DNA of 51,200 bases from Escherichia virus TH26, in sequence record MT446400.1; one strand, given 5' to 3'. The notes beneath the pieces are model-generated. The model saw only the letters and a program-made list of their open reading frames with translations. It ran no database searches and was not told the DNA's origin. The position numbers and the translations under genes are program-made. Positions 41,911 to 42,306 of this stretch are shown here, one piece after another. The stretch's first letter is position 1. Every line of letters starts with the position of its first letter.

Positions 41911-42306
41911 TTATGCTGGAAGTTCGAAATGAGGTGCGTCAAGGAATTTAGCCCATTGCACAGGCTTACTAAACGACCTCTGCCATGTTCCACCCCAACG
42001 AATAGTAATTCCAAGCTCTTTTGCAGCTTTGAACATGTGTTCAGCCACAATCTGGAATCGTTCGAGGTCATTCCAGTCAATTGGATATGGTGCAATGTCT
42101 AAAGCGTTGCCTGACATGTGTCGGCTAACTGAAACTTTGGTTGCACCCTGCTTTAAAAGCTCTTGTTGACGTCCATAAGAGCGTAAACCTTCCAAAACAG
42201 TTACATCAAAAGGCATGGTTTCACACGCCCGTTTGAAAACTGCAACTAATGAAGGATTTACTCCCTTAAGTCGGTCTAAAGAACGTTGGCCGAGCTTAAC
42301 ATTCAT
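41911..42306 (-). CDS. Endolysin, peptidase M15 family (T5 Lys-like L-alanyl-D-glutamate endopeptidase)
   Basis: 131 aa; zinc-site pattern SRHMSGNALDIAPY...DAPHFEL; IDWNDLE and KELGI motifs collinear with T5 endolysin as I recall it. Confidence 0.8.
   Translation of the reverse strand: MNVKLGQRSLDRLKGVNPSLVAVFKRACETMPFDVTVLEGLRSYGRQQELLKQGATKVSVSRHMSGNALDIAPYPIDWNDLERFQIVAEHMFKAAKELGITIRWGGTWQRSFSKPVQWAKFLDAPHFELPA

Follow-up and report, generated by a model that had tools for sequence, protein, structure and literature searches.

According to the holin-endolysin model, an endolysin of the soluble kind builds up harmlessly and the holin sets the time of lysis; T7 gp3.5 and T4 e are both produced well before lysis. 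T7 gp3.5 is a soluble N-acetylmuramoyl-L-alanine amidase of the amidase_2 fold that binds and inhibits T7 RNA polymerase. Its gene lies among DNA-metabolism genes under phage-RNA-polymerase promoters, between SSB and the primase-helicase, and is far from the holin and spanins; to our knowledge, T7 possesses no second, holin-linked endolysin. The M15C endopeptidase ChiX of Serratia marcescens (PDB 5opz), which has L-Ala-D-Glu specificity, is bacterial and serves chitinase secretion without lysis. It has been described as an endopeptidase acting in tandem with the holin ChiW (PMC4259817).

The phage T5 endolysin (EndoT5, PDB 2mxz/8p3a) is an M15C enzyme with an SxHxxGxAxD...DxxH arrangement and no signal peptide, and is activated by Ca via a mobile Ca-binding loop (PMC10487532). 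EndoRB49 and EndoRB43, from pseudo-T-even phages, are single-domain M15C enzymes that act as L-Ala-D-Glu peptidases; the chain of PDB 8q2g carries residue numbering matching that of EndoRB49 (H62/W109; PMC10487532). Mutagenesis has established that a conserved surface Trp by the active site (T5 W114/RB49 W109) is essential for catalysis (PMC10487532), and the same paper assigns a catalytic role to the Asp in the DxxH of M15C peptidases.

We analysed a stretch of 51,200 nucleotides from Escherichia virus TH26 (MT446400.1), hereafter the window, which shows a phiEcoM-GJ1-like coliphage (Chaseviridae) in reverse-complement orientation. It contains a homologue of these enzymes:

41911..42306, minus strand, M15C zinc peptidase gene, 131 aa, orthologue of phiEcoM-GJ1 gp21 and predicted soluble endolysin

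T7 gp3.5 is an analogue of its product by position and function and is not homologous to it. Like gene 3.5, the M15 gene stands among DNA-metabolism genes with phage-RNA-polymerase promoters (44709, 41035) and with holin and spanins distant, and both phages encode a single-subunit RNA polymerase. The amidase_2 (PGRP-like) fold was not found in the TH26 protein by Pfam, the M15 fold being unrelated to it. T5 lys, too, is found away from the structural region, with nucleotide-metabolism genes next to it; however, it overlaps its own holin gene, whereas the TH26 holin is 39.6 kb off and is partnered by a SleB-like gene. The genome contexts of the EndoRB49 and EndoRB43 genes also differ from that of the M15 gene. 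In contrast to ChiX, the TH26 gene resides in a virulent phage with a full lysis set.

Family membership and catalytic residues of the M15 protein

The segment 41911-42306 is filled exactly, on the minus strand, by a 131-codon reading frame running from ATG to TAA. A Pfam search of its product returned M15-family matches only, with Peptidase_M15_4 (PF13539) at E 8.9e-9 and 36.2 bits (cutoff 25). PHROG 465, 'endolysin', was matched at E 2.6e-54, and no NCBIfam model matched. When the protein was compared by phmmer with solved chains, the matches included 23ri (E 1.3e-23), 8q2g (E 1.6e-23), EndoT5 2mxz (E 1.7e-20) and ChiX 5opz (E 5.5e-18). Identity to the EndoT5, EndoRB43 and EndoRB49 chains was 39-44% with similarity over the full length, the RB49 and RB43 enzymes (41-44%) being nearer than T5 (39%). 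Such identity to characterised enzymes would point to cleavage between L-Ala and D-Glu, and a LAS-type fold is implied by the about 40-44% full-length identity to solved chains. The Pfam label for the protein's own family reads 'D-alanyl-D-alanine carboxypeptidase'.

We then aligned the M15 protein with T5 Lys, RB43 and the Erwinia and GJ1 orthologues using MAFFT. Residues S61, H63, G66, A68, D70, W108 and D123 were invariant, and H126 was present in every full-length sequence, matching in position the C-terminal His found in T5, in RB43 and in the GJ1/Erwinia orthologues. The zinc ligands H63, D70 and H126 thus preserve the SxHxxGxAxD...DxxH arrangement, with D123 at the catalytic Asp position three residues ahead of the last His and W108 as the counterpart of the Trp at T5 W114/RB49 W109. 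EndoRB49 and EndoRB43 share the zinc triad, the Asp of catalysis and this Trp with it. The values of dN/dS against GJ1, PYps3T and Erwinia phage Mauresque were 0.09-0.13, indicating purifying selection; the idea of a decaying remnant was rejected because of these values of about 0.1 and the intact catalytic residues. Judged from its sequence, the product is a real and intact single-domain zinc metallopeptidase of MEROPS subfamily M15C.

The maximal 15-residue Kyte-Doolittle mean within the first 35 residues was 0.72, whereas the exported SleB-like protein reached 1.87 and the secreted gp18 reached 2.23. A scan of the M15 protein found no segment at the TM threshold. By hydrophobicity and TM scan, the M15 protein has no export signal, whether signal peptide, SAR or TM segment. 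The original prediction had called it a T5-type M15 peptidase collinear with T5 endolysin, with the zinc site SxHxxGxAxD...H and no signal peptide; the identity of 39% and collinearity along the whole length, the Pfam, PHROG 465 and solved-chain matches, the aligned residues and the hydrophobicity values bear out each of these points.

The likeness to T5 does not extend to the Ca-activated subtype, as the alignment revealed no acidic EF-hand-like loop after the Trp in TH26. The T5 loop DWNASGDYHDEIK aligns with TWQRS--FSKPVQ of the TH26 protein, acidic residues being replaced by basic or neutral ones (DWNASGDYHDE in EndoT5 against TWQRS--FSKPV, which has no acidic residue). The TH26 loop between W108 and D123 is ~10 residues longer than that of 8q2g and T5-like in length, but it is basic rather than acidic. 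The TH26 enzyme is therefore probably Ca-independent, like RB49/RB43, and such a small Gram-negative lysin could interest enzybiotic work.

The transcription unit and its neighbours

Phage promoters were located using a consensus, CATTAGTTGGATGTGA, for which the GJ1 sites were taken from its GenBank record; 11 sites were found in the window against 0.65 expected. The features around the M15 gene are as follows:

48443..50629, minus strand, ORF with the T7-like single-subunit RNA polymerase gene, by synteny with GJ1 gp01
44694..44709, minus strand, promoter for the phage RNA polymerase, corresponding to GJ1 'phage promoter 3' and differing from the consensus at 1 position
44254..44622, minus strand, gene that opens the unit, corresponding in position to GJ1 gp15 (SSB in the annotation), by synteny
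42802..43152, minus strand, gp18-like gene, 116 aa, N-terminal signal-type hydrophobic segment; PHROG 35432 (E 7e-81) and 31637
42578..42805, minus strand, gp19-like gene, 75 aa; PHROG 31639
42306..42581, minus strand, gene for a gp20-like acidic protein, 91 aa; PHROG 31001
41334..41891, minus strand, ArdA-type anti-restriction gene (GJ1 gp22 annotation); PHROG 14321, E 1e-48
41105..41341, minus strand, gp23-like gene, 78 aa, last of the unit; PHROG 2652 and synteny
41020..41035, minus strand, next phage promoter, equivalent of GJ1 promoter 4 and downstream boundary of the M15 unit
40894-40879 and 40766-40751, two more copies of the phage promoter

The RNA polymerase ORF stands at the early end of the genome, and its actual start codon probably lies close to 50389. 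The promoter at 44709-44694 would be the start of the unit holding the M15 gene, an equivalent phage promoter being found upstream of SSB in Pectobacterium phage PM1 as well. Promoter mapping and gene overlaps lead us to infer a tightly packed unit, SSB ... gp18-gp19-gp20-M15-ArdA-gp23, in which the M15 gene would be transcribed by the phage's T7-like RNA polymerase. The gp18-like gene, which is kept in PM1, overlaps the gp19-like gene by 4 nt. The TAA stop of the gp20-like gene and the ATG of the M15 gene share 1 nt (TAATG), an overlap that suggests translational coupling. The ArdA-type gene begins 20 nt past the M15 stop, and the Pfam ArdA match to its product was weak and under the curated cutoff. 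Pfam gave nothing for the gp18-, gp19-, gp20- and gp23-like or the SSB-position proteins. The M15 gene has SSB upstream of it, and its unit is followed downstream by the primase-helicase and DNA polymerase genes.

As the M15 gene is downstream of a phage-RNA-polymerase promoter, in the SSB-to-ArdA unit, it would be a middle gene, comparable to those of T7 class II, and not one transcribed early by the host polymerase. It had been placed in the early region; it does sit in the RNA-polymerase-proximal part of the genome, but 'early' is imprecise for a probable middle gene behind the promoter at 44709-44694. Our literature search found no relevant data on transcript timing in Chaseviridae. Directly downstream of the M15 operon, on the plus strand near 41001, there is a predicted antisense sigma-70 promoter that is perfect and conserved, with TTGACA and TATAAT hexamers. 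Two other candidate signals, a terminator-like hairpin inside the M15 gene (42230-42211) and a sigma-70-like site (42333-42305), were dismissed, since the region has no more such sites than its shuffles; the hairpin is at chance level. A tRNA at 37414-37506 was detected by Rfam and not called by ARAGORN.

The holin-linked endolysin and the spanins

The remaining lysis genes are placed elsewhere in the window, along with the promoter that heads the last late unit:

36999..37235, minus strand, i-spanin, Rz-like, with an N-terminal TM segment; PHROG 1026 (E 2e-19) and TM scan
36866..37075, minus strand, o-spanin, Rz1-like lipoprotein in which ...SIVSC resembles a lipobox; PHROG 1275 (E 8e-17)
10970..10987, minus strand, last phage promoter, equivalent of GJ1 promoter 9
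1950..2303, minus strand, lambda-S-family holin, equivalent of GJ1 gp73; PF05106, E 3.9e-9, above cutoff
1374..1934, minus strand, SleB-like cell-wall hydrolase, 186 aa, equivalent of GJ1 gp74; PF07486, E 9e-16

The holin was also matched by PHROG 126, holin/anti-holin (E 1.6e-20), and by a TM scan, its TIGR01594 score falling under the curated cutoff. It is separated from the M15 gene by 39,608 bp, so the claim that the two lie far apart holds; the spanins are 4.7 kb from the M15 gene. The canonical holin-endolysin cassette does not include the M15 gene, since the neighbour of the holin is the SleB-like gene, which starts 16 bp after it. The SleB-like protein matches PHROG 938 endolysin and the SleB chains 4f55/4fet, and it contains a conserved EARGE motif region. 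Orthologue N-termini reveal a hydrophobic N-terminal export segment with a conserved PAS(A/V)G motif, and several GenBank records annotate the protein as 'SAR endolysin'. On these sequence features it is an exported endolysin, by signal or SAR, partnered with the holin. The view of the M15 protein as the phage's one endolysin, stranded from its holin, was thus mistaken: the holin has a predicted exported endolysin 16 bp on, and the premise that holin and endolysin are separated in this phage is corrected.

A terminator-like hairpin at 11020-10996 is followed by the last phage promoter, which heads a unit running from the baseplate through the tail fibre, holin and SleB-like genes to NrdF; the holin gene would lie at the far end of this last late unit. 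The o-spanin gene overlaps the i-spanin gene, and GJ1 has been listed among phages with two-component spanins (PMC6139136). With a holin, a SleB-like hydrolase and i- and o-spanins, the other lysis genes are complete besides M15. The lysis module of the phage group has been taken to be 'holin-SAR endolysin' (PMC6989608), and the holin has been termed a 'pin-holin' (PMC10282059). If a pin-holin made small holes, a soluble 15-kDa M15 enzyme would not escape through it. Matches to the lambda-S family argue for a large-hole holin, hole size itself being unreadable from sequence.

Conservation across relatives and the PM1 slot

The annotated orthologue phiEcoM-GJ1 gp21 (YP_001595416) has 95% amino acid identity to the TH26 protein and equal length with few substitutions; the two genes share gp20 upstream, ArdA downstream and the promoter context. 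Carltongylesvirus and Loessnervirus have further orthologues, among them SKA49 ORF22, ST32 ORF24, Mangalitsa and PYps3T ORF022. The TH26 C-terminus is of the 131-aa GJ1 type, as opposed to the 138-aa ST32/SKA49-type variant, which has been attributed to recombination at residues 81/82 (PMC10282059). The gene is already known, being 'endolysin' in the GJ1 record and endolysin or L-alanyl-D-glutamate peptidase in dozens of relatives. A published M15_C alignment takes in the GJ1-type orthologue (PMC10487532), and the two-hydrolase layout of M15 plus SleB-like has been described for SKA49 (PMC10282059). With annotation, alignment and layout in print, the M15 gene is an ordinary one of little discovery value. 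Our literature search turned up no biochemical work on the M15 enzyme of these phages. The additions of the present analysis are small, namely the antisense sigma-70 promoter and an enzyme swap in PM1.

Every relative from Escherichia, Yersinia or Erwinia that is found in both listings has the M15 and the SleB-like gene together. Pectobacterium phage PM1 has no M15 gene; in its place is a soluble CHAP/TIGR02594 wall hydrolase of 158 aa (140.6 bits, cutoff 70.55), located between the PHROG-31001 gene and ArdA and downstream of the SSB promoter, as in TH26. That the slot stays while the class of enzyme in it changes suggests selection for peptidoglycan cleavage itself, and not for an M15-specific side function; M15-to-CHAP exchange here is a clean natural case of non-orthologous lysin replacement. 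In Vibrio phage VPs20, from the other Chaseviridae subfamily, a SleB-like hydrolase likewise has an M15-clan peptidase as its partner, encoded next to it. The VPs20 peptidase was rejected as an orthologue, as it belongs to Peptidase_M15_3 (BLASTP E 0.64).

A second lysin and its alternatives

Because the holin is directly trailed by an exported SleB-like endolysin, we consider it likely that the M15 protein is the phage's second, soluble lysin acting beside that endolysin. It would accumulate harmlessly in the cytoplasm because it has no export signal, and would gain access to the wall only once the lambda-S-type holin permeabilises the inner membrane. At the wall it may cooperate with the exported SleB-like glycan-strand hydrolase, after which the overlapping spanin pair would disrupt the outer membrane. 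Chaseviridae, as T5-like phages do, would then use two hydrolases together, one for glycan strands and one for stem peptides. As the holin sets the time of lysis, the timing of M15 expression would matter little. Cells infected with Tiny, a related Carltongylesvirus, lyse at about 60 min and until then display no phenotype of wall damage (PMC13340011), which fits cytoplasmic sequestration of the M15 protein. As a counterpoint, the M15 gene is unlinked to the holin, and the holin's exported endolysin might suffice alone.

The roles of the two hydrolases could be reversed, with the M15 protein as the principal or only endolysin, apart from the holin, and the SleB-like protein accessory or used for another purpose. 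The M15 gene is indeed the more conserved of the two (dN/dS about 0.1 against 0.22-0.30; identity to GJ1 95% against 73%), a lambda-S-type large-hole holin is the partner type that a soluble endolysin needs, and in T5-like phages the holin-linked endolysin is an M15C enzyme, with a separate sleB gene. However, the SleB-like gene lies 16 bp past the holin in every relative examined, including the M15-less PM1, and its product has both the EARGE motif region and an export signal. Moreover, M15 is replaceable by another enzyme class, whereas holin and SleB-like are found in 4/4 genera whose cassette was inspected; we regard the reversal as unlikely. A lytic role for the M15 protein might also be secondary or absent, its main task being intracellular and prior to lysis: modulation of RNA polymerase in the manner of T7 lysozyme or, in a variant, cleavage of UDP-MurNAc-peptides or lipid II that shuts down host wall synthesis and division. 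The gene's surroundings (DNA-metabolism genes, a phage-polymerase promoter and a phage with a T7-like RNA polymerase), its position relative to neighbours, which is that of T7 gene 3.5, the separation of the slot from the late cassette in Escherichia, Erwinia and Pectobacterium phages, and the presence of a dedicated holin-linked endolysin are all consistent with such a role. It is nevertheless hard to square fold-specific binding, such as that of RNA polymerase, with the exchange of M15 for CHAP/TIGR02594; the residues for wall cleavage are all invariant, the protein does not resemble T7 lysozyme with its amidase_2 fold, and no early wall-synthesis phenotype is reported for Tiny-infected cells (PMC13340011). 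We thus find a pre-lysis task quite improbable, and hold the same slim expectation for the broader version in which the M15/CHAP slot encodes a cytoplasmic effector or RNA polymerase brake and the SleB-like protein does the lysing. Were it such an effector, the antisense sigma-70 promoter might gate the M15 operon while the host polymerase is still active.

Two further explanations change the site or the chemistry of cleavage rather than its timing. That the M15 protein digests the wall from the virion during DNA entry, and not in lysis, is hinted at by the best PHROG of the PM1 slot protein, named 'baseplate hub subunit and tail lysozyme'. The tail proteins of that PHROG are, however, much larger, and the match is to a domain at their C-terminus, so the name points to a hydrolase domain in common and not to a tail protein. 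The ST32 paper, consulted for virion proteomics, contains none. The M15 gene lies in the DNA-metabolism region with the structural module far off, and the GJ1 record names many 'virion structural proteins' without gp21 among them and places a transglycosylase domain in the large tail protein gp62, which makes a virion enzyme very improbable. We see equally little chance that the protein is a VanY-like D-Ala-D-Ala carboxypeptidase trimming stem peptides instead of cutting between L-Ala and D-Glu. Pfam does describe PF13539 and PF02557 as D-alanyl-D-alanine carboxypeptidase families; yet the VanY match is sub-threshold (16.2 bits against 25), the nearest solved chains with a depositor-named specificity (EndoT5 and 8q2g, E 1e-20 to 1e-23) are L-Ala-D-Glu peptidases, and ChiX, of the same specificity, matches at E 5.5e-18.

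Identity of the M15 enzyme

The T5-type M15 peptidase of the original prediction coincides exactly with an open reading frame of 131 codons (41911-42306, minus strand, ATG to TAA). We found that its product matches Pfam Peptidase_M15_4 over threshold (E 8.9e-9) and PHROG 465 'endolysin' (E 2.6e-54), as well as the solved M15C chains 23ri and 8q2g (E about 1e-23), the EndoT5 chains 2mxz/8p3a (E 1.7e-20) and the ChiX chain 5opz (E 5.5e-18). A MAFFT alignment of the protein with T5 Lys, the RB43 orthologue, gp21 of phage phiEcoM-GJ1 (GJ1) and one Erwinia-phage orthologue reveals invariant S61, H63, G66, A68, D70, W108 and D123, and H126 is found in every full-length sequence aligned. 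The predicted SxHxxGxAxD...H zinc site is intact in these residues, which also comprise the catalytic Asp and a conserved Trp; mutagenesis showed that EndoT5 and EndoRB49 depend on this Trp for activity (PMC10487532). The expected lack of a signal peptide was likewise borne out, as the N-terminus is polar, with a 15-residue hydropathy maximum of 0.72, whereas two exported TH26 proteins reach 1.87 and 2.23. The gene is under purifying selection, with dN/dS of 0.09-0.13 against three orthologues. By every sequence-level defining feature tested, the protein is assigned to M15C.

Identities of 39-44% to characterised enzymes point to L-Ala-D-Glu bond specificity. The acidic T5 loop DWNASGDYHDE aligns with TWQRS--FSKPV in the protein, indicating that the enzyme is probably Ca-independent; it resembles the Ca-independent RB49/RB43 enzymes more than it does T5. 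GJ1 gp21, the orthologue of this reading frame (95% amino-acid identity), is labelled 'endolysin' in its GenBank record and already appears, with the ST32 and 4HA13 orthologues, in a published M15_C L,D-peptidase alignment (PMC10487532).

Annotation noise was seen in related records. In phage PYps3T, a 75-aa gp19 homologue and an 86-aa reading frame near the spanin region are both called 'endolysin' and ArdA is called 'tail fiber protein', while the M15 gene of SKA49 is called 'imidazoleglycerol phosphate synthase'. The host label of 'Staphylococcus phage Pel53' (PP952070) looks doubtful, since its proteins are about 73-82% identical to these coliphage lysins.

Transcriptional setting of the gene

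Megablast relatives of this region are phiEcoM-GJ1-like phages (Chaseviridae, Cleopatravirinae, Carltongylesvirus) with 80-94% nucleotide identity. Because all real genes lie on the minus strand, the conventional map corresponds to the reverse complement of the window. Its transcriptional landmarks are as follows:

about 48.4-50.4 kb, minus strand, T7-like RNA polymerase gene of the GJ1-type map
44709-44694, minus strand, phage promoter immediately before the gene that occupies the SSB position
41035, 40894 and 40766 (span 40751-41035), minus strand, phage-promoter cluster by core match, three copies within 285 bp
40965-40994, plus strand, perfect sigma-70 consensus TTGACA-N18-TATAAT (12/12), antisense to every gene
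10987-10970, minus strand, last phage promoter, after a hairpin at 11020-10996

The core CATTAGTTGGATGTGA recurs in the nine sites that the GJ1 record labels 'phage promoters'. A search allowing up to 3 mismatches gave 11 sites in the window versus 0.65 expected, all except one on the coding strand (10/11). The M15 gene is flanked by the promoter before the SSB position and by the three-copy cluster, and it sits in a tightly packed series in which gp18/gp19 and gp19/gp20 each overlap by 4 nt and gp20/M15 by 1 nt, with 20 nt from the M15 stop to the ArdA start. Terminator-like and sigma-70-like matches in the M15 region showed no excess over shuffled controls. The unit headed by the last phage promoter comprises baseplate, tail fibres, holin, a SleB-like gene and NrdF. 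This arrangement suggests that M15 is a 'middle' gene dependent on the phage RNA polymerase, and that the holin cassette stands at the far end of the final late unit. A literature search for Chaseviridae transcriptomes found none. In the established lysis model, timing is set by holins and not by endolysin synthesis, and for this reason the timing of M15 carries little weight.

A site before the RNA polymerase gene (50620-50635, minus strand) resembles the phage-RNAP promoter, with 1-2 mismatches to the consensus, and is conserved in GJ1 (at 572) and in Pectobacterium phage PM1 (at 185). This suggests that the polymerase gene may be transcribed by its own product; the nine GJ1 promoters on record do not include this site.

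The sigma-70 consensus is the sole match of at least 11/12 on either strand of the window; each shuffled copy of the window should contain about 0.03 perfect matches. It comes shortly after the end of the M15/ArdA unit and faces the phage promoter at 41035-41020 head-on, at a distance of about 25 bp. Syntenic sites are kept in GJ1 (minus strand, 10569; the record carries no annotation of it), PYps3T (+5450) and PM1 (minus strand, 10518), the last with a diverged spacer and both hexamers still perfect. Such a site could drive antisense RNA into the gp23-ArdA-M15 unit or interfere with the convergent phage promoter. It could also mark a replication origin, because an AT-rich tract and clustered promoters adjoin it. 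The tract lies between the promoter copies at 41035 and 40894; GJ1 has two copies at the equivalent place.

The holin cassette and a second lysin

A membrane-segment scan of all minus-strand reading frames followed by family searches yielded these lysis genes, listed with two neighbouring landmarks:

37414-37506, minus strand, 93-nt tRNA (Rfam, 41.5 bits)
36999-37235, minus strand, i-spanin, overlapping the o-spanin gene
36866-37075, minus strand, o-spanin, overlapping the i-spanin gene
2.5-7.5 kb, minus strand, tail fibres of the GJ1-type map
1950-2303, minus strand, lambda-S-family holin (PF05106 E 3.9e-9; PHROG 126 E 1.6e-20)
1374-1934, minus strand, SleB-like cell-wall hydrolase of 186 aa (PF07486 E 9e-16; PHROG 938 'endolysin'; SleB chains 4f55/4fet)

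Unlike Rfam, ARAGORN reported no tRNA around 37414-37506; the GJ1 equivalent, just upstream of the spanin genes, is annotated as a 95-nt tRNA-Arg with the remark 'may contain an intron'.

The SleB-like gene starts 16 bp past the holin. Its product opens with a hydrophobic segment followed by a PAS(A/V)G motif, which is kept in the GJ1, Erwinia and Pectobacterium orthologues, and several GenBank records label it 'SAR endolysin'. The original prediction of an endolysin far from the holin therefore holds for distance, as the M15 gene is 39.6 kb away and outside any canonical holin-endolysin cassette, but the holin does not stand alone: the adjoining SleB-like gene supplies it with an exported endolysin. 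The M15 enzyme is thus the second, soluble muralytic enzyme of TH26. For SKA49, a first module encoding an L-Ala-D-Glu peptidase has been described, together with a holin-linked SAR endolysin and a distant spanin (PMC10282059), and a 'holin-SAR endolysin' module is present in all phages of the group (PMC6989608). With the gene and the two-lysin layout both annotated and published, the M15 endolysin finding is already known.

We infer that the zinc peptidase, made from the SSB-unit promoter, would accumulate in the cytoplasm until opening of the inner membrane by the lambda-S-type holin gave it access to murein. There it would cleave L-Ala-D-Glu stem bonds, with the exported SleB-like enzyme attacking the glycan strands, and the spanins would breach the outer membrane last. 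Cells infected by the Carltongylesvirus 'Tiny' compact and their nucleoid condenses at 20-40 min, they do not lyse until about 60 min, and wall damage is not among the phenotypes reported (PMC13340011); this course lends indirect support to sequestration in the cytoplasm. The main uncertainty of the proposed mechanism is the size of the holin hole. The SKA49 holin has been termed a 'pin-holin' (PMC10282059), and if this label is correct, the holin by itself would not let a soluble enzyme out. The holin start (2289-2303, minus strand) reads GTG-E-R-Q-ATG, and M-E-N-K-M in PM1, where a basic residue stands between two possible starts; it resembles the lambda S dual-start holin/antiholin motif.

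Hydrolase replacement and comparison with other phages

Both lysin genes are present in all Escherichia, Yersinia and Erwinia relatives common to the two tblastn listings. Erwinia phages share the layout: their M15 gene belongs to the SSB-to-ArdA unit, and the holin and SleB-like genes come after the tail fibres. PM1 (Suwonvirus) has the holin and SleB-like cassette and lacks the M15 gene. The exact syntenic slot is filled by a gene for a soluble CHAP-domain protein:

PM1 8426-8902, CHAP-domain protein of 158 aa (TIGR02594, 140.6 bits versus a cutoff of 70.55)

It directly follows a PHROG-31001 (gp20-like) gene (8147-8425) and precedes ArdA (9564-10130), with an equivalent promoter and SSB upstream. 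In this conserved operon, one muralytic enzyme has thus been exchanged for another that is not its orthologue. A swap of hydrolase class in a fixed slot indicates, on comparative grounds, that wall cleavage is the selected function, and it counts against a fold-specific side activity. T7, a phage with a single-subunit RNA polymerase, carries a soluble wall hydrolase, gene 3.5, among its class II genes; the M15 gene has a similar position and an unrelated fold. A T7-lysozyme-like regulation of RNA polymerase by the M15 protein is disfavoured because of the same swap. At this slot in PM1, the product name given to PM1_012, 'baseplate hub subunit and tail lysozyme', looks like one carried over from a shared domain.

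T5-like phages have an M15C lys overlapping the holin gene and a separate sleB, so the holin-linked lysin is M15C in them and the reverse in the GJ1 group; examples come from the records of misterkot and falkor, and from Bf23 ('sleB') and T5 (lys). In Vibrio phage VPs20, of the other Chaseviridae subfamily (Nefertitivirinae), a membrane-anchored SleB-like hydrolase (2875-3513) is directly followed by a Peptidase_M15_3 protein (3523-3894). These pairs make the combination of glycan-strand and stem-peptide hydrolases a recurrent one, which in VPs20 recurs with a different gene at a different location. The VPs20 Peptidase_M15_3 protein was rejected as an M15 orthologue (BLASTP E 0.64).

Small acidic proteins near the hydrolase slot (PM1 7835-8143, 8147-8425 and 9234-9521; window 42306-42581) look like a locally duplicated family. 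Their C-terminal ends read ...LLNNTLNDALKGK in window gp20, ...LLNTTLSDALKGK in PM1 8147-8425 and ...LDATLKGLLSD in PM1 9234-9521, and one member always lies immediately 5' of the hydrolase gene.
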